From a virus (lineage: Duplodnaviria > Caudoviricetes): a stretch of DNA of 64,000 bases. The translations under genes and the position numbers were made by a program. The notes under the pieces were generated by a model. It did not search any database. It had not been told where the DNA came from and saw only the letters and a program-made list of their open reading frames with translations. The DNA is taken from positions 96,001 through 160,000 of the IMG/VR virus record IMGVR_UViG_3300010163_000002; one strand, given 5' to 3'. This document shows positions 15,449 to 45,640 of the stretch, in pieces; positions within the stretch are counted from its first letter, which is position 1, and each line of letters begins with the position of its first letter.

Positions 15449-16651
15449 TTACGCTTTTACGTATATTAATGCGGTATCTGCTCTAGATGCACCTACAAGA
15501 TTTAATGCATTTTGGCTAGTTCTTGAGCAATGTTCTTCTATATAAACGACTTTACCCCATTGCCCTCCTTGGCTTAGGTATGTCGTTATGGCATAAGCGA
15601 ATTCAAATAAGTTACCTTTAGTATATTTATTATTTTTTATTGTGTTTCTTATAGTATAATCTGAAGTAATGTATTTATAGTTGCATCTGGAATTAAAGAA
15701 TATAGCGTTTGGAGCCATTTCAGGAGCAAATGTCATACTAAATAATTCCCCATCATAAGATGAAACATCTGGATTCGTTAATACTTTACATATTAATCCA
15801 TTTGTTAGATTTATTTCTGTACCATTGCTTAATGACACCCCTTCAAGCCAATTATTTGATCTAGATACTACTTTTTCTCCAAATTGAGGTAATTCTGATG
15901 TATATCCTTTAAGTGAACGTACACGAGCATTTAATTCATCTCTTGTTTTATTAGTACCGCATATTATTATATCGGCCCATAACAACATATCGTCAGTTAA
16001 TTGATTTCTGTTAATTACCAGGCTATTACCATAATAACCATTTGGTATGCCGTATCCTTGACCAACGCATGTGGCTATATAATTGATATCATCCTTACCA
16101 ATTTGTCTCATGCATTTTGTTAATCTTAGTATTTTGCCACCATTAAGAAATGCTGGTTCGTCTCCTATAGGTGGTAACTGATGTTCGTCACCACATACAA
16201 GAATTTTTATACCAAACTCTTTAATACATTCGCCTATACTTGCTGGCAAGCAATATCCTTCATCTATAACTATAAGTTCTATTTTATCATCAAGCTTATA
16301 ACGTTTACAAAACTTTTGTACCATAATTGGTACATTAAGAAGATTATCGTACATTATATGCCCGTATTTATCTCTCATTGGTTCTCCCACAACATTAAAT
16401 ACCCATGAATGGGCTGTCTTTGCTGTAGGAAAACCTTTCATACGCATTACTAAAGATGCTGTTCCTGTAAAGCTCATAGGCGCAACTTCAGTGTTTAAAT
16501 CTAATCCTAAGGTTTTAACTATTTCCATTAGCACTACAGATTTTCCTGCTCCTGGCACTCCAGCATATTGAAATACTTGATCGCCGCTAAGATGAAACCA
16601 TTTTACAGCTTCTCTCACTATAGTTTTCTGTTCATCATTTAATGTAAACAT
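15449..16651 (-). CDS. RecD/Dda-like superfamily 1B helicase
   Basis: Walker A 'GVPGAGKS', 'IVIDE', 'GDEHQLPP', 'LTKCMRQ', 'FAYAITTYLSQG'. Confidence 0.88.
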   Translation of the reverse strand: MFTLNDEQKTIVREAVKWFHLSGDQVFQYAGVPGAGKSVVLMEIVKTLGLDLNTEVAPMSFTGTASLVMRMKGFPTAKTAHSWVFNVVGEPMRDKYGHIMYDNLLNVPIMVQKFCKRYKLDDKIELIVIDEGYCLPASIGECIKEFGIKILVCGDEHQLPPIGDEPAFLNGGKILRLTKCMRQIGKDDINYIATCVGQGYGIPNGYYGNSLVINRNQLTDDMLLWADIIICGTNKTRDELNARVRSLKGYTSELPQFGEKVVSRSNNWLEGVSLSNGTEINLTNGLICKVLTNPDVSSYDGELFSMTFAPEMAPNAIFFNSRCNYKYITSDYTIRNTIKNNKYTKGNLFEFAYAITTYLSQGGQWGKVVYIEEHCSRTSQNALNLVGASRADTALIYVKA

Positions 16652-17031
16652 ATCAACTCATACCCTTCAGTATTACAGTATTTTTCTATGTCGCATTTAC
16701 GTGCTATGATTACGTCGCCATTTATATTTTTTACCATTATTAGCTCATTAGGATTATTTTTTATTTTATTTGCATCTTTGTTAAATTTGTTGACTACTTT
16801 ATACTTGCCAGGTTTATTAATCAATATAAAATCATCAACTAATTTCTTATGCATACATACTGCATAATTAGTATATTTATATTCTGATTTTTTGCCAAGT
16901 AATTTTTGTATGAAATTTGGTTTTACTAAATTTCTTTCTAGTATTTCATAATATATAATACCATCTTTAGACATTATCATCCTCCTTAATGAGATTATTT
17001 TCTTGATTTTGTGGGAGGTTGTACATCCCAT
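16639..17031 (-). CDS. Hypothetical protein
   Basis: ORF in operon; true start probably at the MIMSKD after AGGAGG. Confidence 0.6.
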   Translation of the reverse strand: MGCTTSHKIKKIISLRRMIMSKDGIIYYEILERNLVKPNFIQKLLGKKSEYKYTNYAVCMHKKLVDDFILINKPGKYKVVNKFNKDANKIKNNPNELIMVKNINGDVIIARKCDIEKYCNTEGYELICLH

Positions 17032-17495
17032 GCGTTAAAATCATATAAATGCTCGGTCTTATTAATTTTACAAATAAGATTGAGTATTCTTAATGATTCG
17101 TTAGTAAATGCTTTTGATTGCATTTGTAATGTTTTGTCGCCTTTAATATAAGACATAACAAAATGCCCTTTATCGCTTCCTGGAATTGGAGATTGATCCA
17201 TTGCTACTATTTCATTGGCAATATGATTTTTAAGATATCTAAATGCAAGTATCTCTGTCAATCGTGGATTTTCAATAAGATTAAAATCAATCTCATTGTG
17301 CTCAAGCACTGGATATTCATAATCGCAATACTTGATAAATTTTTCTTTTATTTGAATAATACTTTGTTCTTCCATGTCATAGATATGATCGTTATCGTCT
17401 ATATCTAATCCTGTCTCTCGCATGAATGCATCATTGAACGCGAGTTTAATATTAAAGAATTCTTTTTCTTTTTTAGTCATTTGTTTACCCTCCAT
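16995..17495 (-). CDS. Hypothetical protein
   Basis: ORF heading the helicase operon. Confidence 0.7.
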   Translation of the reverse strand: MEGKQMTKKEKEFFNIKLAFNDAFMRETGLDIDDNDHIYDMEEQSIIQIKEKFIKYCDYEYPVLEHNEIDFNLIENPRLTEILAFRYLKNHIANEIVAMDQSPIPGSDKGHFVMSYIKGDKTLQMQSKAFTNESLRILNLICKINKTEHLYDFNAWDVQPPTKSRK

Positions 17496-17519
17496 TTTAT
17501 ATTAATCGTTATTTGCTTT

Positions 17520-17532
17520 GACATTGTTATAA
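17520..17532 (+). promoter_or_regulatory. ACA-N6-TAA phage promoter motif
   Basis: GACA-ttgtta-TAA upstream of the baseplate genes. Confidence 0.55.
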
Positions 17533-17535
17533 TAT

Positions 17536-17934
17536 ATGATTTCTATTTATTTTAAAGTACGGAGGCGTATAAAAATGAGCAACTCTAAATATCAGACTGA
17601 AATAGGAATAATTCAGAAAAAAATTTTAGCATTTAAACCATGTTATGCTAAATTGAAAATACCGGCTTTCTTTGGGATGGACGATGAAACTACAGTGGAT
17701 ATTGTAATGCCATTGCATATATCCATAACATATGGTGATGTAGTAATTCCAAAGGGAACCAAAGTAATTATTCAGGCTGTACAAGGAAATTACAATGATT
17801 TAAAAATTATAGGATTTTATGATAAACCAAAAAATTATGACTTCATAAATATGCTTTCTAAATATTTAATTGGAGATCCGCCAGAACCGCATTTACCAAA
17901 AGATTATGGGGTATACCCATATGATGAAGTATAA
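17536..17934 (+). CDS. Putative baseplate/tail-associated protein
   Basis: Late-type promoter motif; 'IPKGTKVIIQAVQGN...IIG' resembles baseplate-spike OB-fold; adjacent to gp53-like gene; likely start MSNSKY. Confidence 0.4.
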   Translation: MISIYFKVRRRIKMSNSKYQTEIGIIQKKILAFKPCYAKLKIPAFFGMDDETTVDIVMPLHISITYGDVVIPKGTKVIIQAVQGNYNDLKIIGFYDKPKNYDFINMLSKYLIGDPPEPHLPKDYGVYPYDEV

Positions 17935-35994: not shown

Positions 35995-37554
35995 TTATTC
36001 AAATCTATCAATAATGTATTTCATTCTGGTTGTTGCCGTTTCTACTATCAACGCAAAATCCCATGTAGATCCATTACCATACATTAATCCTGCAGCAGCC
36101 TGAGCATCTGCTGGAATATCAGTAATTGGCGTAGATGATGAGTACGACTCAATTACTTTACGTACAGGATATAATTCACTTCTAAGTGACTGCGGGAACA
36201 ACGCTGAGCCACCACTCATAATTTTGTCTCTGCAATCTTTAATAATAAATAATACATAATCGGTATCTTCAGCTAGCATATCGCTTGAACGAGGTACAAT
36301 TGCGATAACTTCGCTTGATGGATTTACGTTAAACTGAGGGCATGTTGCACCGCCATTATAGACATACTGGCATAATGGGTTTCTTGCTTCTTTGGAATCC
36401 CATTTTATTAATGGTTCGGCGTCAGGATCGCATGCTGTTGTTAATGAACAGAAAGGATATCTTCCGTATCCATGCAAAGCAACATTGATTTTCAATGCGT
36501 TTGGCAAAACTGTTTTCATAAACTTTTTAAGCGTAACACGCAGAGGTTTATCAGTAACGTCAACAATGTTATTATTAACTTTATTTTTAGCATCGTCTTT
36601 TGTCCTAACATTAGAAAATACACCGCCATGTTTTTCTGTATCTTTTTCTTCCGGCTTCTTCCAGAAGAATTTGATAACATCGTCAATGGTAGCAATTCTA
36701 CGCTTAAGAGCAGATTCAAGATTAAGATCGGCAATAATCTTTTCAGCTTCTGTTACTAATGTTGATGAAGGAGCCGACTTTGGTCTCATATAATTCATTG
36801 GATCTACTTTTTCGTTGAACCTTTCAATTACAGTGTCATCGTCAATATTATTGATAATATCATCCATTAAAGATCCTTCAACAGATCCGGCAAGGTGATA
36901 TAGAAGGTTATATTTTTCAAAAGCGTATTTCCACAGTTTATTGGTGCGACACTGGCCTTTGGAGTTGTTTACATCATCCATTACTTCTTTAACAGCTTTA
37001 AGAGTGCTTAAAGTATTTTTGTCATGCAGTAATTCTGTTGATGCAATTGCAATTGCACGGTCGATTGCATTTATATATCTATTCAGTGCAAGTCTAACTG
37101 TGCTAAAAATGTGCATACATTCCTCGCTTGTTATTCCGTAGTCAGGAATCAATACATTTCTGCTTATATTAGCATGGAAATGGCTCCATTCTTCAGTTTC
37201 AGCGGTGCCATATTCAATATGGTCTTCGTGCCCAGTTACGTACGTATTGGCATTGCTACATAATACTTGCGTCATTCTGGATGATTCCACTTCTTCATTT
37301 AATGCTCTTACGATGTCTTTAAATACACCGCAAGCAAGATCTTCATTCCATATAATAGATCTTGTAGATCCAGTATCATCTACGTATACAAGAGTTCCAT
37401 ATCTATGGAAGAATCCGCGGCACGTATTACAATTGAAATGCTGTCTGATTTCTCCTTCCGGGATCATAGATAAGTACAAATCAAACAGCGGAGTTCTTAC
37501 ATCTGTTTTAAAGAGTGCAACTCCAGATACTTTGACGTTAACTCTAAGCTCCAT
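35995..37554 (-). CDS. Large-phage hypothetical protein with 'RQHFNCNTCRGF' motif (N-terminus possibly frameshifted)
   Basis: 519-aa ORF; CxxC plus 'WSHFH', 'VDPMNYMRP'; no RBS at this ATG. Confidence 0.7.
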   Translation of the reverse strand: MELRVNVKVSGVALFKTDVRTPLFDLYLSMIPEGEIRQHFNCNTCRGFFHRYGTLVYVDDTGSTRSIIWNEDLACGVFKDIVRALNEEVESSRMTQVLCSNANTYVTGHEDHIEYGTAETEEWSHFHANISRNVLIPDYGITSEECMHIFSTVRLALNRYINAIDRAIAIASTELLHDKNTLSTLKAVKEVMDDVNNSKGQCRTNKLWKYAFEKYNLLYHLAGSVEGSLMDDIINNIDDDTVIERFNEKVDPMNYMRPKSAPSSTLVTEAEKIIADLNLESALKRRIATIDDVIKFFWKKPEEKDTEKHGGVFSNVRTKDDAKNKVNNNIVDVTDKPLRVTLKKFMKTVLPNALKINVALHGYGRYPFCSLTTACDPDAEPLIKWDSKEARNPLCQYVYNGGATCPQFNVNPSSEVIAIVPRSSDMLAEDTDYVLFIIKDCRDKIMSGGSALFPQSLRSELYPVRKVIESYSSSTPITDIPADAQAAAGLMYGNGSTWDFALIVETATTRMKYIIDRFE

Positions 37555-37643
37555 GCGGCAAGATTTTTCATTGTTTTATCATAATCTGCCTTATAAGTAT
37601 TAAGTTCCTCATTTACGTTTGTTTCCATACAAATTTTGCACAT
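37497..37643 (-). CDS. 48-aa ORF, possibly the out-of-frame N-terminus of 35995-37554
   Basis: AAAAGGAGA RBS about 8 nt upstream; MCKICMETNVNEELNTYKADYDKTMKNLAA...; overlaps the next ORF by 58 nt. Confidence 0.45.
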   Translation of the reverse strand: MCKICMETNVNEELNTYKADYDKTMKNLAAWSLELTSKYLELHSLKQM

Positions 37644-37753
37644 ACTTTTTATCTCCTTTTCTTCTTTTTACTATTTTTCTTGTTAAAATTCATTTGTCCT
37701 TCTATTTTACGGCACATATTATTCCTCCCTTCATTCAGCATATCTATATATGG

Positions 37754-38131
37754 TTAAACCCTACCATGCCAATAAGAGCTCAGCGCCTTTTTGATTTTAT
37801 CCTCCATATCATCATTTGAAAATTCTCCAAGCGGAGCGACAGAAATGCGCTGTACTATATCTGAGCCATAATATACACCTTGCATAGTATCTATTCGACA
37901 TATTTTATAAGGTTTAGATAGGATCTCTTTATCATATTTTTCTTCTACCTCTGGATTTGGTAAAGAGATTGCAAACCTCATTTTACCGCACTCTGTAGTA
38001 ACAAGTGTAAATTTATCACCATTAATTATATTTTGGTATTTTCCTGTATTAGGATTTATACGTTCATATAAGAATCTAAGTAAATCTTTTTCATTGATTT
38101 CCCCAAGATATTTAGGTTTTGTTCTACTCAT
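37754..38131 (-). CDS. Protein with domain homologous to the N-terminal part of the DGR target domain (VR-less paralog 2)
   Basis: 'KYLGEINEKDLLRFL...NTGKYQNIINGDKFTLV' aligns with 38142-38690 and with the target; AAAGGAG RBS at MSRTKP. Confidence 0.65.
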   Translation of the reverse strand: MSRTKPKYLGEINEKDLLRFLYERINPNTGKYQNIINGDKFTLVTTECGKMRFAISLPNPEVEEKYDKEILSKPYKICRIDTMQGVYYGSDIVQRISVAPLGEFSNDDMEDKIKKALSSYWHGRV

Positions 38132-38141
38132 ATATTCTCCT

Positions 38142-38690
38142 TTAGTTGTAAATAGGATTTTTCTCACGTATCACCTTATCAAATTTGGTATCTTTATCAG
38201 ATTTACCTTTAAGTATCCATTGAGTATACATGTCTCCAATTGTTTCACATCTTACGTGATAACCTATATCAGGATTAAATCCCATAGATAATACTCTAAC
38301 TTTCACTTTATCGTCGTTATTTACAAGTGTAAATACATCTCCGATTTTTATATTTTCAAATTTTCCAGTGTCAATTTTATGATCTTTTATAAATTGAGAA
38401 ATATTTTCTGGAGTTATTTCTCCAAAGTCTTTTACTTCAAATGATAAATTATTAAGATTCATACTTCCTCCTTTTAAAAATATTGGAGATAAGCCAACCA
38501 TAGAGTAGCAAGCTGGCCTTACAGTAATACGTTCTGCTGATTTATCCCATGATAAATATGGCATATAATGTGGAGCCCATGTATCCTCTGAAAGCCGCTT
38601 ATCAAATTTTTCTATTTTGCTTTTTAATGATACGCATTGCTTAAACTTATGATTCCATCCCTTTATCTTACGGTTTTTCTTTTTTCTCAT
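38142..38690 (-). CDS. Protein with domain homologous to the N-terminal part of the DGR target domain (VR-less paralog 1)
   Basis: 19/52 ungapped identities to target residues encoded at 40307-40462; internal AAAGGAGG RBS before an in-frame ATG at 38462. Confidence 0.7.
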   Translation of the reverse strand: MRKKKNRKIKGWNHKFKQCVSLKSKIEKFDKRLSEDTWAPHYMPYLSWDKSAERITVRPACYSMVGLSPIFLKGGSMNLNNLSFEVKDFGEITPENISQFIKDHKIDTGKFENIKIGDVFTLVNNDDKVKVRVLSMGFNPDIGYHVRCETIGDMYTQWILKGKSDKDTKFDKVIREKNPIYN

Positions 38691-38828
38691 TATTTGCCTC
38701 CTTTGTTTAATATTTTAAAAAGTCCACATAAAGGTATTACTTTATGTCTGGCTATAAATATATTATACATTTCAAATATACTTTTTTACCTGTATAGGTT
38801 CTAATAAAACGTAACAATGTTAGACTCA

Positions 38829-38841
38829 AACATAATGATAA
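38829..38841 (+). promoter_or_regulatory. ACA-N6-TAA phage promoter motif
   Basis: AACA-taatga-TAA upstream of the fibre operon. Confidence 0.6.
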
Positions 38842-38868
38842 TAAAATGTTAAAGGAGGTAGCATTGTT

Positions 38869-40095
38869 ATGGCGATTAATAAGGCCACTTTAGCCAAAGA
38901 GATCGATGGCGTTATAGAGTATATATACCCTAAAACTACTGCTGATCTTGTAGAGTATGATGCGTCTTATACTGTTGAAGAAAAAATTAAACAGTTAGAG
39001 AAAAACATCACTGGCGTCAATGACAGGGTTAGTAATCTGACCACTGGAATTGGAGACGGTAGTATTACATCTGTACTCGATGCTGAGCTTTTGGATATTA
39101 GAATTCCTAATGCCGGTGTAGTCGGAACAGAAGTTAAATATGCATCTGCTGGCGATGCTGTCAGAGGTCAAGTTGGTAAACTTTCTGATGAGATAGGCCA
39201 GAATAGAAGTAATCTTTCTAACGTGAAAGGCAAAGTTGATACTCTTGAGAAAATTGTTTCCTCAATTCAGGGAACCGCTGGAAATTCTAATGCAGAAGTA
39301 GTTGGATTGAGGGTTCCAAATTCTAAAATCAGTGAATTAACATACCAGAATGCCGGAGAGGCTGTAAGAGCACAGTTAGGAATTTTATTTGATAAAATCA
39401 TAGCTACCGATGCAAAAATAAGCACAATGCAAAATGCTTTCCAAGGAGGAGAAGTAAGTTCTGCTGAAGGATTGGAATTGGTAGATATTCGTACTCCTAG
39501 CTATAATGTGGTTCCAGAGGGAACTACGTATAAGACAGCCGGCGAAGCAGTAAGAGCACAGATGGATGCTCTTAATGAAAAAATTGAAGAGGTAAAAGAT
39601 GGGACGTATTATGAACTCCTGTATGTAAATGGAGAGCCTCTCTATACATCAGACGGTGAACCTATACTTGTATCCATCTCTTATAATGAAGTCGGAACAT
39701 CTGATATTTCTGCACTTGAGAAACGTATGAGGCAGGAGCTCAAGGATACGTTGGCTGCCCATACAAGAATTATGCAGCAGACTCTTAATGTAATTAATGA
39801 AGGAATGGAAACAATGCAAAGAAATATCGATATGATATATACCGGAAAATACTGTGAACCGATTATGATCGATGGCGACGAGTGGTATACTTCTGATAAG
39901 CAGCAAATTGTTACTTATACATCAGTTGGAGATTTAGCTCAGGAAGCTATTGACAGAACAGCTCAGTTATTAAGAGGAGAAATCTATCAAGCTAAAGTAT
40001 CTTGTGCAAGAGCTTTAAAAGATTGGGTTATGGATCAGAACATGTTGTTTCTTGTTAATACAGAACCTATAATCGAAGAAGTTACAGCATCTTGA
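38869..40095 (+). CDS. Tail fibre / baseplate-attached fibre protein
   Basis: Three repeats of E-x-x-[DG]-[IL]-R-x-P...Y-x-x-AG[DE]AVR[GA]Q typical of Firmicute phage fibre stems, coiled coils; N-terminal 'IYPKT.ADLV'; late promoter motif. Confidence 0.72.
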   Translation: MAINKATLAKEIDGVIEYIYPKTTADLVEYDASYTVEEKIKQLEKNITGVNDRVSNLTTGIGDGSITSVLDAELLDIRIPNAGVVGTEVKYASAGDAVRGQVGKLSDEIGQNRSNLSNVKGKVDTLEKIVSSIQGTAGNSNAEVVGLRVPNSKISELTYQNAGEAVRAQLGILFDKIIATDAKISTMQNAFQGGEVSSAEGLELVDIRTPSYNVVPEGTTYKTAGEAVRAQMDALNEKIEEVKDGTYYELLYVNGEPLYTSDGEPILVSISYNEVGTSDISALEKRMRQELKDTLAAHTRIMQQTLNVINEGMETMQRNIDMIYTGKYCEPIMIDGDEWYTSDKQQIVTYTSVGDLAQEAIDRTAQLLRGEIYQAKVSCARALKDWVMDQNMLFLVNTEPIIEEVTAS

Positions 40096-40162
40096 TATAT
40101 GTTATGGATTAAAACCAGAAATGGTTTTAATATATAAATTTTTAATAGGAGGTAAACCTACA

Positions 40163-41041
40163 ATGGGCAAAACAATTGCTAATTTAATTCAGGTAAATGA
40201 ATTGACAGCTAATGATGTATTTGTAGTAGGTACGGCCGCCGGCGATCGTAAGGTTCCTTACAATGTGCTGGTGCAGAATACTTCACACAATGCAATCTTT
40301 AGAGGCAAAAATCTTGGAACTGTAACAGCAGCCAACATTGACGCTTTCATTACTCAGCATGGTATTGCTACCGGAGTGTTTAATGATATCTATGTTGGTG
40401 ATTACTTCACTGCATCATATGCCGGAGCAAATACGGTATTCCGTATTGCTGGTATCAACTTCTATAAGAATACTGGTGATACGCAGTTGACTGCTAATCA
40501 TGTAGTTATCGTTCCAGATGGTAACCTTACAACTGCTGCGATGAATTCCACTAATACTACTGGAAAGAGTGCTAATGAAGCTAATACTTCTGAGAAGAGC
40601 GGATTCCTTGGTAGTGATATGTGGAATATTGTACTTCCGGATGTTAATGAGAAGCTTGCTGCTATCTTTGGCGGCCATCTGCTTACTCACAGAGAAATCC
40701 TTTCTAATAGCATGGATGAGAATGCTATTCCGTCTGGAAATCCATCTTGGAAGGGTGCTAGTAACGGATGGGAATGGGTAGATTGTAAGGCAGTTCTTAT
40801 GTCTGAAGTTGAAGTATATGGAGCTCCTGTATGCGGATCTTCGCTGTATGATGTAGGAATTGCAAACTGCATTCTTCCGCTGTTCGTGCTTGAAAAGCGT
40901 TATCTTACAAACAGAAGCTGGTTTTGGCTCAGAGGCGTAGCAAGTTCCGCGAATTTCTGCTATTGCACCAGCTATGGCGTTTCGGTCTGCAATAACGCGT
41001 CTAATGTCCTCGGCGTGCGGCCCCGCTTCCTTTTAGGTTGA
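40163..41041 (+). CDS. DGR target protein: putative receptor-binding protein with C-terminal C-type-lectin-fold (DUF6273-like) variable domain
   Basis: AGGAGG RBS before ATG 40163; 'LMSEVEVYG', 'WFWLRGVASSANFC...NASNVLGVRPRFLLG*'; contains the VR. Confidence 0.88.
   Translation: MGKTIANLIQVNELTANDVFVVGTAAGDRKVPYNVLVQNTSHNAIFRGKNLGTVTAANIDAFITQHGIATGVFNDIYVGDYFTASYAGANTVFRIAGINFYKNTGDTQLTANHVVIVPDGNLTTAAMNSTNTTGKSANEANTSEKSGFLGSDMWNIVLPDVNEKLAAIFGGHLLTHREILSNSMDENAIPSGNPSWKGASNGWEWVDCKAVLMSEVEVYGAPVCGSSLYDVGIANCILPLFVLEKRYLTNRSWFWLRGVASSANFCYCTSYGVSVCNNASNVLGVRPRFLLG
40943..41031 (+). repeat. DGR variable repeat (VR) including GC-rich/IMH end
   Basis: 89-nt ungapped match to 41984-42072 with 15 mismatches, all opposite A in TR. 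Confidence 0.96.
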
Positions 41042-41101
41042 TCCATAGCCCTAAAGCCGCCCGCTGTGTCGGTGCGGCATGGGCTATGAAAGATCAACCT
41101 A
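41034..41101 (+). promoter_or_regulatory. Long hairpin/cruciform immediately 3' of VR (DGR target-recognition element)
   Basis: Nested arms TAGGTTGATC/GATCAACCTA, CATAGCCC/GGGCTATG, GCCGC/GCGGC, CCG/CGG. Confidence 0.75.
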
Positions 41102-41139
41102 CAACGATAGCATATAAAATGTAAAAATATACCATATAA

Positions 41140-41152
41140 AACACTCTAATAA
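41140..41152 (+). promoter_or_regulatory. Putative phage RNAP promoter (AACA-N6-TAA) upstream of avd
   Basis: AACA-ctctaa-TAA, same motif as upstream of ten other plus-strand operons. Confidence 0.55.
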
Positions 41153-41280
41153 TATATGCTATGAGATATATTCTGGTCTTCTTATATAGCATGGCATGTA
41201 TTATCGTTATCCACATCCTTTTTGATTACGGGCGAGGTAAAACTCGCCTGTAATAATAAATATTATAAGAGGTTGAAACT

Positions 41281-41985
41281 ATGTCTGTTCCTGTTTATAG
41301 AAGAAATGAATCTAAATTGGAGTTTTACGAAAATTTCTTTAAGCTTAGAAGAGAAGTTTTACTTCTGTTAGCTAGGGATTTCGGAATTAAAGCTAGAACG
41401 TATGACGTAAATCTTGTGTCTGACATTTATGGCTTAAATAATCATGATAGAAATGAACTAATGGATATAGGGCAAAGAAATAATATCACCGGGTTTAATG
41501 TTGATAAGATCCCTATGTGGTTAATCGAGAATTGGCGGTATGAGATAATGAACATTTTAAATAATATTGGGATCGCCATTAACTGTGCTAATGCTATTTA
41601 CATAGTTAATCTTCCCGAATATTATGATAGACGGAATTTTCTTAATCATGCTATAGGATATTGCATGGCTCTTCAGGATAAGCTGAATGAAATCATAGTT
41701 TGCTTAAAAGATGTCAAATTAGGTGCGTATGAAAACGTATATAAGTTGATAGTTAGCGAAATAAGATTGTTAAAAGCTTTAAGGAGAAGTGACAATAAAC
41801 TATATAAAAAGTATGAGAATACTTTTCCGTACTACAATGGTTCGTTTTATTACAATGCTCCGCCTGTCCCGCCAACGTATATGTATGACGTTGAGAATGG
41901 CTCGGTAAATCGAGTCATGCTGGACATGTGCAAAATAGTTGATAAGAAAACAACCCCGTTTAAATCTCTGGGCATAGCTGCATAA
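41281..41985 (+). CDS. avd: DGR accessory variability determinant (Avd-like four-helix bundle) with C-terminal extension
   Basis: Position between VR and TR; 'MSVPVYRRNESKLEF', 'AN.IY.....EY.DRR.FLNHAIGYC..L', 'EIRLLKALRRSDNK'. Confidence 0.85.
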   Translation: MSVPVYRRNESKLEFYENFFKLRREVLLLLARDFGIKARTYDVNLVSDIYGLNNHDRNELMDIGQRNNITGFNVDKIPMWLIENWRYEIMNILNNIGIAINCANAIYIVNLPEYYDRRNFLNHAIGYCMALQDKLNEIIVCLKDVKLGAYENVYKLIVSEIRLLKALRRSDNKLYKKYENTFPYYNGSFYYNAPPVPPTYMYDVENGSVNRVMLDMCKIVDKKTTPFKSLGIAA

Positions 41986-42072
41986 TTCCACGAATTTCTG
42001 CAATTGCAACAACAATGGCAATTCGAACTACAATAACGCGTCTAATGTCAACGGCGTGCGGCCCCGATTACT
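41984..42072 (+). repeat. DGR template repeat (TR)
   Basis: Non-coding, 12 AAY codons in the VR frame, 28 adenines; begins at the avd stop codon. Confidence 0.96.
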
Positions 42073-42209
42073 GCCGGTATAACCAGAGGGTTATATTGGA
42101 GAGTAAGGAGCTTATGCCCATCCTCTCGTTCATACGAACGTTTGGTGAATTATTACTCGGAACCCGGATACGTCCGATGGTTTAATTTTTGTTTTGGTTG
42201 GTGCTATAG
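42073..42209 (+). ncRNA. Structured 3' spacer of the DGR template RNA
   Basis: Hairpins at 42074-42099, 42127-42140 (CGTTC-atac-GAACG) and 42165-42176 (CGGA-tacg-TCCG) between TR and RT. Confidence 0.55.
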
Positions 42210-43400
42210 ATGTATGAAGCAATCTGTTTAATTGATAATTTATATGACGGATTTAGAGATGTTAGGTCTAAAAGCGGATGGAAACCTGAAACTCAACGGT
42301 ATTCTATGTATATGATGCCTAATCTTATTGAATTGAGAGATTCATTAGTTAATGGTACGTATAGACCTACTCCTCCAAATGGCTTTATTCAAAATGAGAG
42401 AGGAAAACCTAGATGGATAGAGTCAAGGTGCGTTAACGATAGAATCGTTAATAAAGTGGTGCATGATCATGAGATCATGCCAGCCATATTTCCAAAACTT
42501 ATATATGATAATGCCGCGTCTATAGAAAACAGAGGAACAGATTTCTTCAGGCGTAGATTGTTGTACCATCTTTCTAGTTTTGCTGCAGAACATGGAACAG
42601 ACGGTTATATTCTATTAATAGATTTTAAGAAATTCTTTGATAATATCAGACATGATGATCTAATACTGATGTTCAGACAGGTGATTTCTGATCCAAGATC
42701 GATGCGCCTTATTGAGATGATGATTAGATCTAATAGAGTTGATGTTTCATACATGAGTGATGAAGAGTATGCCAATTGCATGAATGTACCGTTCAATAAC
42801 CTTGAGTATCGTCAGAAAATTGTTTCTGGCGAATATAAAGCAACTGGCGAACGGTTTATGAATAAGTACATGGGGATTGGCAGCCAGATAAGTCAGGATG
42901 CTGGTATTTATTATCCTCATGATATAGATAATTATTGCAAGATAGTGAGGGGCGTTAAGGGTTATGGAAGATATATGGATGATTCTTATGCCATTCATCA
43001 TTCTAAAGAATTCTTATGGGATTTATTGATGCATATAAAAGAAATATGTATTACCCTTGGAATATTTTTGAATGAACAAAAGACTCAGATTGTAAATCTC
43101 AAACATGAATTTACAATATTACATACAAGATATAAGCTACATGAAAATGGAGATGTTTCAATAATCGCTGATTCTGATTCATTCAGCAGAGAACGCCGTA
43201 AGCTTAATAAGCAAGCTGATATGTTGAATGAAGGTTATGAAAGAATATCATATGATATTATTCGTAATCAATATAACTCATGGAGAGGAAATATTGTTAG
43301 AACAGCTAATGGTAGAAATATAGAACCATTACAAAGGATGGATAATCATTTTAATGAATTATTCATCGAACCATTCGCTAATGGCCAAATAATTATATAG
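42210..43400 (+). CDS. DGR reverse transcriptase
   Basis: 'ERGKPRWI...NDRIV', 'DFKKFFDNIRH', DGR-type 'GIGSQISQ', catalytic 'RYMDD'; no maturase/endonuclease domain. Confidence 0.95.
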   Translation: MYEAICLIDNLYDGFRDVRSKSGWKPETQRYSMYMMPNLIELRDSLVNGTYRPTPPNGFIQNERGKPRWIESRCVNDRIVNKVVHDHEIMPAIFPKLIYDNAASIENRGTDFFRRRLLYHLSSFAAEHGTDGYILLIDFKKFFDNIRHDDLILMFRQVISDPRSMRLIEMMIRSNRVDVSYMSDEEYANCMNVPFNNLEYRQKIVSGEYKATGERFMNKYMGIGSQISQDAGIYYPHDIDNYCKIVRGVKGYGRYMDDSYAIHHSKEFLWDLLMHIKEICITLGIFLNEQKTQIVNLKHEFTILHTRYKLHENGDVSIIADSDSFSRERRKLNKQADMLNEGYERISYDIIRNQYNSWRGNIVRTANGRNIEPLQRMDNHFNELFIEPFANGQIII

Positions 43401-43413
43401 GAGGTATATTAAA

Positions 43414-43665
43414 ATGGCTAGAACTTCTGCTGATATCCAGCGCGAAATCGATGTATTGCTTAACAGGTTGTCTGCTAACTCTTCAGATATTGGTGATTGG
43501 AAGGTCACTAAGATTTATGAAGCAAGACTTCTGAATAATCCCGATCCTTATGATACTGCTGCTCTTATTGCTGAGCGGCAGGCTGTACGTGATCAGATTA
43601 ATACTCTGCAGGAAGAACTGAAGACTGTTCAGTCGGCAGAATCTCATAATATCCAGTATGAGTAA
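43414..43665 (+). CDS. Small tail-fibre-associated protein (putative assembly chaperone)
   Basis: 'DWKVTKIYEA...PYD...ERQAVRDQINTLQ' pattern seen in small proteins beside phage fibre genes; AGGAGG RBS. Confidence 0.55.
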   Translation: MARTSADIQREIDVLLNRLSANSSDIGDWKVTKIYEARLLNNPDPYDTAALIAERQAVRDQINTLQEELKTVQSAESHNIQYE

Positions 43666-43702
43666 TTAATAATTTACAGTATTTTGCCATAATATAAAAT
43701 AC

Positions 43703-43728
43703 ACCCGTAGGGAGAAATCCCTACGGGT
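43703..43728. terminator. Bidirectional terminator closing the fibre/DGR operon
   Basis: ACCCGTAGGGA-gaaa-TCCCTACGGGT. Confidence 0.82.
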
Positions 43729-43735
43729 TTAATAT

Positions 43736-44332
43736 TTATCTGTTATAACCAAGCTTTCTCAAATGTTTGCTTACTGTGGAAGCGCATCTATCGCATTCTT
43801 CCGCAATTTTAGCATATGTATAACCTTTATTAAATAATTTAATAAATTTATTCACTTCTTCATTTGTTACTCTATTAGAAGTTCTCTTTAGAGTTTCACT
43901 GTTTTTCATACGATATTTAATTGTGTTTTCCGATATATTCAGCTCTTCAGCAATGGTTTTTATATAGCAACCGTCTTTAACCATACTATTTAATTTTTTA
44001 ATCTGTTTATCTGTTAATTTGTTTTTGGAGTTAATCTTTATTTTAGCTGGAGATTTTAATCTTGCACGCACACAACTACGGCTTTTTCCTAAAGCATTAG
44101 CAATTTGTGACAATGATAACCCTGCACTTCTCATTGCTAACATTTCTTCTCGTTCCGATTCAGTTGTTATATTATTATAGGTAGTTATTGCGTTATATAC
44201 TTCAATTTGAGATAATTTAGTCTTTTTGGCGATTTCATCAATATAATAACCAGAATTACGATACATAACGCAAATCCTTTTATTATACGATTCTATAGAT
44301 TCTCCCTTTTTTCTTCTTGGTTTTCCTAACAT
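43736..44332 (-). CDS. Multi-HTH DNA-binding protein
   Basis: Four HTH-like repeats: 'GYYIDEIAKK', 'GLSLSQIANALG', 'GCYIKTIAEELN', 'GYTYAKIAEEC'. Confidence 0.8.
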   Translation of the reverse strand: MLGKPRRKKGESIESYNKRICVMYRNSGYYIDEIAKKTKLSQIEVYNAITTYNNITTESEREEMLAMRSAGLSLSQIANALGKSRSCVRARLKSPAKIKINSKNKLTDKQIKKLNSMVKDGCYIKTIAEELNISENTIKYRMKNSETLKRTSNRVTNEEVNKFIKLFNKGYTYAKIAEECDRCASTVSKHLRKLGYNR

Positions 44333-44416: not shown

Positions 44417-45640
44417 TTATTTAAGAGAAAGCACTTCTTCAGGATCGATTTCATTTAATGCTAATGTGCTATCATGGAATGCTTTCATAGCTTTATTCTT
44501 TACAGACGACATCATAACCATAGATACGAGGCCTACATTCTCTATACCAGCTCTTCTGAATAATGTACCAGCACACGTTTCACATATGCATCCATCTTGT
44601 GTTCTAGCGCATAGAGAAGAATATCTCATTTTAACAGTTTTACCAATAAGGGAATCCATATTATCAGATGTAATCTCTATAGGATTCCCCGATGAATTAA
44701 TATAGTATGAATACATCCAGCTTTTGATATTTTTATTTGTTAATGTGACATCAATTGTTCTCTTTGTACCGCAATCTGTATGCGGTATAATTTTAATATG
44801 CTGAGTAGCGCGAGTAAATAATTTTTCGTTATATCCGCCATATCTTGTCTTTTGTGACCTTGAATATGGTCCGCCAACTGCAGCATCATTTGTTTTAGCA
44901 AAATCTTTAGGATCAAGACCAGAAATATATGAACTTCCGACATAATCATATGAACCATCTGTCTTTTTAATTGATCCCTTAAGAAGATACATATTCTTAA
45001 AATTATTTCCCCACTTAGAACGTGCTCCTGAATTATACATATCTGCTGATTCAGAATCTTTTAATTCTTCTTTAGCAAAATCAATTAACTCATTCTCTAT
45101 CTTTTTAATCGCTTCTAGGTCTCCATCCTCTAACTCTTTAGCGTATTTTGCTTCAAGTTCTTTCTTTTTCTTCTCTGCTTTTGTTGTAATAAGAAGAATA
45201 TCCATATCATGAGATGGGCATAATGCAGACGCACAACTCATTAATATTTGGGTTTGCATTATAAAGTCTTTTACTTGATCTATAGTTACTTTTTCTTCAA
45301 GAAGAGCATACGATATCTTTTCGTTTATTTTATCGTATGTTTTATCTGTTACTGTTTCATTCACATACCCAAGTATATCAGCCATTGGTTCAATAAATGA
45401 TTTATTGAATAACCATAATCCAACTGTAGTAGTAAAAGAGTTTTTATTTTTCTTTTTATTGCCGTAATATCCTTTAGGAATTACTATGGTATCATATGTA
45501 TTGAACATTGGGCCGTCCCCATAATCTGCGAACCACTCCATTATTTTAGATTTCTCACATGCCTCATCATGAGTTAATGATAAGATCTCTTCAACATCTT
45601 TTGGATTATCTATAATATTGCTCACTCGCTTATTAGCCAT
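44417..45640 (-). CDS. rpoC: Phage RNA polymerase beta' subunit, C-terminal part (probably virion RNAP)
   Basis: 'TTVG...FN', 'SGARS', bridge-helix-like 'KTRYGGY', Zn site 'DCGT...C....ICETCAG', 'MKAFH'. Confidence 0.8.
   Translation of the reverse strand: MANKRVSNIIDNPKDVEEILSLTHDEACEKSKIMEWFADYGDGPMFNTYDTIVIPKGYYGNKKKNKNSFTTTVGLWLFNKSFIEPMADILGYVNETVTDKTYDKINEKISYALLEEKVTIDQVKDFIMQTQILMSCASALCPSHDMDILLITTKAEKKKKELEAKYAKELEDGDLEAIKKIENELIDFAKEELKDSESADMYNSGARSKWGNNFKNMYLLKGSIKKTDGSYDYVGSSYISGLDPKDFAKTNDAAVGGPYSRSQKTRYGGYNEKLFTRATQHIKIIPHTDCGTKRTIDVTLTNKNIKSWMYSYYINSSGNPIEITSDNMDSLIGKTVKMRYSSLCARTQDGCICETCAGTLFRRAGIENVGLVSMVMMSSVKNKAMKAFHDSTLALNEIDPEEVLSLK

Follow-up and report, generated by a model that had tools for sequence, protein, structure and literature searches.

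Two small genes beside the diversity-generating retroelement of a jumbo phage look like truncated paralogs of the retroelement's target family

The small single-domain targets of diversity-generating retroelements (DGRs) that carry a C-type lectin (CLec) fold are represented in gut phages by the DUF6273-like 'tgt2' type of 234-294 aa (PMC10743442), and cyanobacteria contain non-diversified full-length CLec paralogs of DGR variable proteins, with or without remnant homology between template region (TR) and variable region (VR) (PMC7517822). Here we compare with these systems two small minus-strand open reading frames (ORFs), P0002 and P0003, which lie next to a DGR in a virus record of IMG/VR (IMGVR_UViG_3300010163_000002). 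The window, i.e. the whole stretch of 64,000 nucleotides that was analysed, comprises bases 96001-160000 of this 248,905-bp record, which has direct terminal repeats. The GC content of the window is ~31%, and among its genes is one for a split beta subunit of a multisubunit RNA polymerase (44417-45640), which identifies the virus as a jumbo phage.

Like the tgt2 type, and more distantly like Mtd of Bordetella phage BPP-1 and TvpA of Treponema denticola, the neighbouring DGR target (P0001) is a CLec-fold protein (292 aa) that bears its VR at the C-terminal end. P0002 and P0003 share the start-proximal module of this tgt2-like target, but unlike tgt2, Mtd and TvpA they stop after the first hairpin, and since they are without CLec body, VR and ligand-binding surface, they cannot be variable proteins. 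They resemble the cyanobacterial paralogs (PMC7517822) in being undiversified paralogs of a target; however, the cyanobacterial proteins, which arose by within-genome duplication, retain the CLec domain in full, frequently fused to further domains, and are found repeatedly across genomes, whereas P0002 and P0003 consist of an N-terminal fragment, about a quarter of the core, and are confined to a single phage lineage. Within the target's own family they resemble P0011 (256 aa) and P0125 (233 aa), full-length members without an N-terminal anchor which begin at the conserved core, have the same N-terminal layout and FIxDH insertion, and are among the top-scoring matches of the P0002 module, but which, unlike P0002 and P0003, continue through the full CLec body to the GVRPRFxxG end. 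A literature search did not turn up fragment-only paralogs of DGR targets. We put the probability at roughly 60% that P0002 and P0003 are lineage-specific, probably translated truncated paralogs and not DGR components. The features on which the comparison turns are:

40163..41041, plus strand: DGR target gene P0001, 292 aa from ATG 40163 (frame open from 40121), laid out as N-terminal anchor, module (40283-40462) and CLec body carrying the VR
40945..41031, plus strand: VR, the sole one in the window
41986..42072, plus strand: TR
38142..38690, minus strand: P0002, 182 aa, with a unique basic N-terminal extension (residues 1-76) ahead of the family module (residues ~77-165)
37754..38131, minus strand: P0003, 125 aa (137 aa from GTG 38167), with a weaker module (residues ~6-50) and then an unrelated tail

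The two proteins share a module of ~60-90 residues with the start of the target's conserved core. An earlier note on this DNA had aligned target residues 63-114 (40307-40462) with P0002 residues 87-138 (38277-38432, minus strand), and this alignment was reproduced as ungapped with 19/52 identities, 17 of them in the first 35 positions; it was significant in Smith-Waterman shuffle tests (2000 shuffles for each pair; z=14.4, 0/2000) and in BLASTP (E=8e-6). P0002 matched the family member P0124 even across 93 residues (BLASTP 1e-13), its residues 77-140 were aligned by hhalign to a profile of 46 target-family proteins (E=2.3e-6, probability 89%), and in phmmer it matched 198 of the 216 family members at E<=10, so that the core module is recognised significantly in P0002; the profile match of P0003 was weak (E=0.042). 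The latter had been proposed as a weaker copy of the module, and this holds through intermediates: P0003 is linked to P0002 (BLASTP 7e-6; z=7.5, 0/2000) and to other family members (P0125 z=5.8, 0/2000; P0009 z=4.4, 4/2000), and to its own target only by way of these. That the similarity is due to chance or to an annotation artefact, with no paralogy at all, could at most be argued from the direct comparison of P0003 with its own target, which on its own is not significant (z=1.9, 112/2000); against the matches listed above this reading deserves next to no credence, and for P0002 it is already refuted. On these alignments P0002 and P0003 are true paralogs of the start of the target family. The similarity of P0002 perhaps reaches family position ~135, beyond which both proteins have unrelated tails, and they end 40-75 residues past the module; the near-invariant 'RG' of FRGKNLG is absent from both.

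The target family itself is very large, with >436 homologs in a word-based protein search (mostly of 293 aa) and at least 469 confirmed stretches in IMG/VR. The N-terminal anchors differ among its members, and the conserved core always starts with 'HN.IFRGKNLG', the first part of the module motif HN.IFRGKNLG ... TGxFxDLyvGDyFT ... RiAGF. The target P0001 has a weak DUF6273 match, and its AlphaFold2 model (predicted local distance difference test score, pLDDT, 87.4) has the C-type lectin fold: with VIA-align it matched 9qa6 (Z 12.8, 172 residues aligned, root mean square deviation 2.9), the Lcl C-terminal domain (Z 7.2), TvpA (Z 5.6), Mtd (Z 4.4) and many C-type lectin domains (Z 4-5.5). Since the CLec-fold matches of the model begin at residues ~89-106 and run to the C-terminus (~90-306), the module (target residues ~57-114) is, as modelled, a strand-helix-loop extension ahead of the CLec fold plus the first beta-hairpin of that fold. 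The label 'DGR target domain', which the earlier note had given to the shared piece, is thus too wide, as the piece comprises the pre-CLec extension and the first hairpin only. The best match among solved structures, 9qa6, covers residues 32-283, in the N-terminal region of the IgA peptidase of Thomasclavelia ramosa, at 20% identity to the target. A protease of a gut bacterium and this family of gut-phage receptor proteins appear to have the same DUF6273-like CLec module in common. Full-length duplication in the family is exemplified by an 87-kb IMG/VR contig (L083) with two divergent full-length family genes, at 15550-16380 (minus strand) and 17014-17796 (plus strand).

Beyond the module, nothing of the target was found in either protein. 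The earlier note had stated that both are without the WFWLR/VR C-terminus, and a hidden Markov model of the last 45 columns of the family indeed scored at shuffle level on P0002 and P0003, as did models of the family middle (columns 116-261) and of its C-terminal part (columns 262-306). No DNA homology to TR or VR was detected on either strand of 37600-38900, where the best match was 11 nt. Neither gene has a 3' VR with a cognate TR, and neither protein has a complete fold of the CLec/DUF6273 type. Because there is no VR or TR homology, the retroelement should be unable to rewrite them. Searches of Pfam and PHROGs gave no match for either protein, and a language-model similarity search returned nothing usable. 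Three apparent traces of further target sequence were rejected: P0002 residues 1-76 as a relic of the family C-terminus ('GLSPIFLKG' vs 'GVRPRFLLG') scored 0.2 bits, with 17/300 shuffles equal; the P0003 tail as family middle ('YYGSD' vs 'GYxGSDM') scored 1.1 bits, with 2/300 shuffles equal, which is too weak; and the 'FLIGG/FLKGG' match between target and P0002 merely reflects that in both a Shine-Dalgarno (SD) region is translated in frame.

With regard to expression, both ORFs have the appearance of genes. Two further features are needed here:

38142..38462, minus strand: candidate in-frame P0002 isoform of 106 aa starting at M77, the use of this start being presumed
38869..40095, plus strand: fibre gene, 408 aa, which heads the rightward fibre-DGR operon and is divergent from P0002

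P0002 has the SD sequence AAAGGAGG 6 nt ahead of ATG 38690, and the SD of P0003 (AAAGGAG, ahead of ATG 38131) overlaps the P0002 stop codon, which couples the two genes in one leftward operon. Their position was as described earlier, with P0002 and P0003 heading this operon and the fibre-DGR operon running rightward; the other genes of the leftward operon are of unknown function and not obviously structural. Codon-usage log-odds, trained on the 20 longest ORFs of the window, were +0.34 bits per codon for P0002 (N-terminal part +0.22, module part +0.43) and +0.30 for P0003 (tail +0.20), next to +0.46 for the fibre and +0.29 for the target; they were positive only in the annotated frames, the five other frames of P0002 being negative. 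Both ORFs are intact in metagenome contigs of >99% identity from three studies. The SD sites, the coding-like codon usage and the intact frames in near-identical strains together suggest that P0002 and P0003 are real genes and are probably translated.

The internal ribosome-binding site AAAGGAGG that had been noted before ATG 38462 is also present, with AAGGAGG 4 nt ahead of the ATG. This motif occurs at 25 sites in the window, 21 of which are upstream of ORF starts (84% specific), and the copy before M77 of P0002 is the sole one of the 25 to lie within a longer open frame. M77 is the exact point at which the anchor-less family members begin, and the N-termini of P0002 from M77 and of P0003 from ATG 38131 both match the layout of P0011 and P0125 (Met, 7-10 residues, K-x-L/F-G). 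From this shared layout the internal site appears to be where the fragment originally started, and judging by its sequence it may still yield a 106-aa isoform.

These features bear most directly on the possibility that the two ORFs are decaying, non-functional relics of a duplicated or inverted target gene, open by chance and either untranslated or inconsequential. It speaks for relics that P0002 and P0003 are orphans of one lineage; the truncation falls inside a fold in which the first hairpin is normally paired with the missing parts, nonsynonymous variants occur (one of them at a conserved glycine), and chance antisense ORFs of 132-133 aa do exist in the window. However, every part has coding-like codon usage, confined to the annotated frame, the SD sites are strong and well spaced with a motif that is largely specific for gene starts in this DNA, both frames have stayed open at this low GC content although the two copies have diverged to ~39% identity, and the identities that remain are retained at conserved columns. 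We therefore consider mere relics unlikely. The earlier note had kept 'repurposed duplication relics' as its fallback, and this came nearest to the evidence: the paralogy and the truncation stand, and it is the pure relic that is disfavoured by the coding-like features.

The distribution of the two genes is very narrow. Both are singletons among 5.8 billion proteins, and an exhaustive HMMER search of 1.84 billion representatives returned P0002 itself and two full-length family proteins only. A pattern scan of IMG/VR gave no relatives of P0002 or of its 519-aa neighbour, and megablast of 37000-44000 against GenBank phages gave zero matches. Near-identical contigs were present at low depth in gut metagenomes (rat and other) from three studies, and the host is probably an anaerobe from the gut of a rodent or another animal. 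No further copy of the module was detected in the phage's own genome, where a weak family match (C1:78653-78925) falls within an SMC/Rad50-like coiled-coil ATPase and was discarded as spurious. Among 86 family loci (six-frame ORFs, flanks of up to 10 kb) P0002 was the only truncated module ORF, and five near-complete phage genomes (133-250 kb) have one module each, inside a frame of 264-524 aa. Two related jumbo-phage contigs with the DGR cassette, L004 and L005, share fibre N-terminus, target, 234-aa accessory gene, reverse transcriptase gene and 83-aa gene with the window at 50-65% identity, but contained no P0002 or P0003 homolog in the fetched flanks (~7-8 kb on either side of the target), and these flanks differ. 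At the corresponding place in L005 there are two small genes on the minus strand (139 and 140 aa), neither of which is related to P0002 or P0003.

Thus neither gene shows the co-occurrence or synteny of a conserved accessory of the DGR cassette, and no co-occurrence with the target was seen in the related genomes (L004 and L005, the 86 loci, the five genomes), an outcome that the earlier note had itself named as speaking against its proposal. That proposal was of a dedicated DGR accessory, i.e. a partner subunit, chaperone, decoy or dominant-negative regulator, and it finds no support, as related cassettes are without the genes and the only homologs are full-length family proteins. Since P0002 and P0003 are not rewritable and do not travel with the cassette, we do not regard them as DGR components.

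A looser form of the same idea is that they cooperate or compete with the diversified receptor-binding protein, be it as caps, placeholders or dominant-negative regulators or by co-assembly. Since anchor-less members carry only the module ahead of their CLec body, its first part may dock the receptor protein on the fibre or tail, and P0002 and P0003 retain that part. It speaks for such a role that the genes adjoin the fibre-target operon, that both look like real genes which keep conserved motif residues of the family, that anchor-less full-length members begin at the module, and that translation from the internal start would yield a protein consisting of the module alone. It is nonetheless an improbable reading, as the cassettes of relatives come without the genes, no orthologs turned up anywhere, the 'RG' of FRGKNLG is lost in both, transcription is in the opposite direction alongside genes that are not obviously structural, and docking by the module is in its turn conjectural. 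Less likely still is the specific version in which P0002 (as 182-aa and 106-aa isoforms) and P0003 would be expressed mini-proteins that keep the docking subdomain and compete or co-assemble with the receptor-binding protein, tuning the number of variable heads per virion as a non-variable regulator. A complex prediction for the target core (55-306) with P0002 (77-182) gave a score of 0.01 against a mark of 0.32, and we do not take it as evidence in either direction.

Several points also weigh against our preferred reading of lineage-specific, probably translated truncated paralogs. Identities to the family consensus are concentrated at conserved columns (permutation p=0.007 and 0.002), but this enrichment is partly an effect of the aligner. 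The population variants comprise 4 nonsynonymous and 2 synonymous single-nucleotide polymorphisms (SNPs) from low-depth contigs, which are too few to judge; the resulting pN/pS of ~0.5 for P0002 and P0003 (six SNPs) is like that of neighbouring genes, and one of the SNPs (G137E) alters a family-conserved glycine. The model of P0002 has pLDDT 80-94 over residues 81-150, but it was guided by the family alignment and its confidence is no independent evidence of an autonomous fold. Fold searches with this model gave a best Z of 6.0 in the PDB, which is at noise level, and E>=0.003 with template modelling scores (TM) <=0.26 in BFVD; in the Atlas the nearest proteins were phage Mtd_N/DUF6273 proteins (TM 0.41), as expected from a guided alignment, and ASCH/DUF3850 rows were weak. 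Finally, no orthologs were found for either gene, and as the searches for stand-alone modules covered the flanks, the five genomes and a P0002-based query, analogous fragments may exist elsewhere.

With regard to origin, P0002 scored 37-41 bits against P0124, P0125, P0011 and P0009 but only 26 bits (rank 24) against the adjacent target, and since it is closer to other members it is not a fresh copy of that target. It has the 'FIxDH' insertion typical of a jumbo-phage subclade. Going by these scores, P0002 is probably either an older derivative or a capture from a related and probably anchor-less family gene; P0003 is a further diverged tandem copy. We infer that the two genes arose through duplication or capture and were then truncated, that they are expressed, and that they have no dedicated DGR role. 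The ancestor would have been a member of the target's CLec receptor-binding-protein family, most likely anchor-less like P0011 and P0125. Each gene would have preserved the start of its ancestor together with the first ~60-90 residues, i.e. the strand, the helix, the TGxF..I..GD.FT loop and the first CLec beta-hairpin, would have lost the CLec body and the VR, and would have acquired a short unrelated tail. P0002 would in addition have acquired the 76-residue N-terminal extension, leaving the old start as an internal ribosome-binding site and ATG. They would thus be probably translated gene fragments of recent origin in one phage lineage, beyond the reach of the retroelement, and any activity would act via the retained start-proximal subdomain.

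Phage receptor-protein loci commonly come to contain gene fragments through mosaic evolution, and P0002 and P0003 have the appearance of young fragments, not of a new class of accessory gene. If they are only truncated paralogs, they provide a clean small example of receptor-protein loci shedding open, translatable fragments, which are raw material for new genes, and they mark the start-proximal ~60 residues of a very large family of gut-phage receptor-binding proteins as a separable unit. Were they found to bind the fibre or the target, they would provide a first example of a DGR-diversified receptor protein that is modulated by a non-variable fragment. Their occurrence in a single lineage speaks against any general function in the biology of DGRs.

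The DGR itself is real, as VR and TR are 84% identical and all mismatches (14/14) are at TR adenines. The target ATG 40163 is preceded by AGGAGG. In one rat-gut metagenome run (X1) the VR departs from that of the window at 9 further positions (40952, 40968, 40971, 40973, 40980, 40985, 40994, 40995 and 41003), all of them TR adenines, while the target sequence flanking the VR has scattered SNPs only; this confinement of the variants to TR adenines suggests that the DGR is active in natural populations. The fibre protein has weak coiled-coil and tail matches, and over its first 109 aa it shares 64% identity with the fibre which precedes the target in L005. The remaining features of the cassette are:

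41281..41985, plus strand: accessory gene of 234 aa in the Avd position, conserved with the cassette
42210..43400, plus strand: DGR reverse transcriptase (RVT_1 5.5e-14; phrog_1423 3e-58)

The 234-aa accessory had no Pfam or PHROG matches, is about twice the usual size of Avd and is 53-54% identical to its counterpart in two related cassettes, and its stop codon directly abuts the start of the TR. The cassette as a whole (38869-43665; fibre N-terminus, target, 234-aa accessory, TR, reverse transcriptase and 83-aa protein) is a mobile module, common to other jumbo-phage contigs with unrelated flanks at 50-65% identity. A homolog of the 83-aa protein also follows P0011, in the fibre cluster of the contig L006, where there is no reverse transcriptase, and the 83-aa protein may therefore be a companion of the receptor protein and not of the retroelement.

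To the right of the cassette, between the DGR and the gene for the split RNA polymerase beta subunit, lies a minus-strand gene (43736-44332) for a 198-aa protein with several tandem helix-turn-helix units (HTH_38 2e-19, HTH_23, Sigma70_r4). On the other side, contigs of two runs have an extra A behind 37528, which would fuse a 48-aa ORF (37643-37497) with the 519-aa phrog_1735 gene (35995-37554, minus strand), and the window may contain a frameshift or an assembly error at this point. A 1-nt deletion at 37698, present in three runs, falls inside a tiny basic ORF downstream of P0003.

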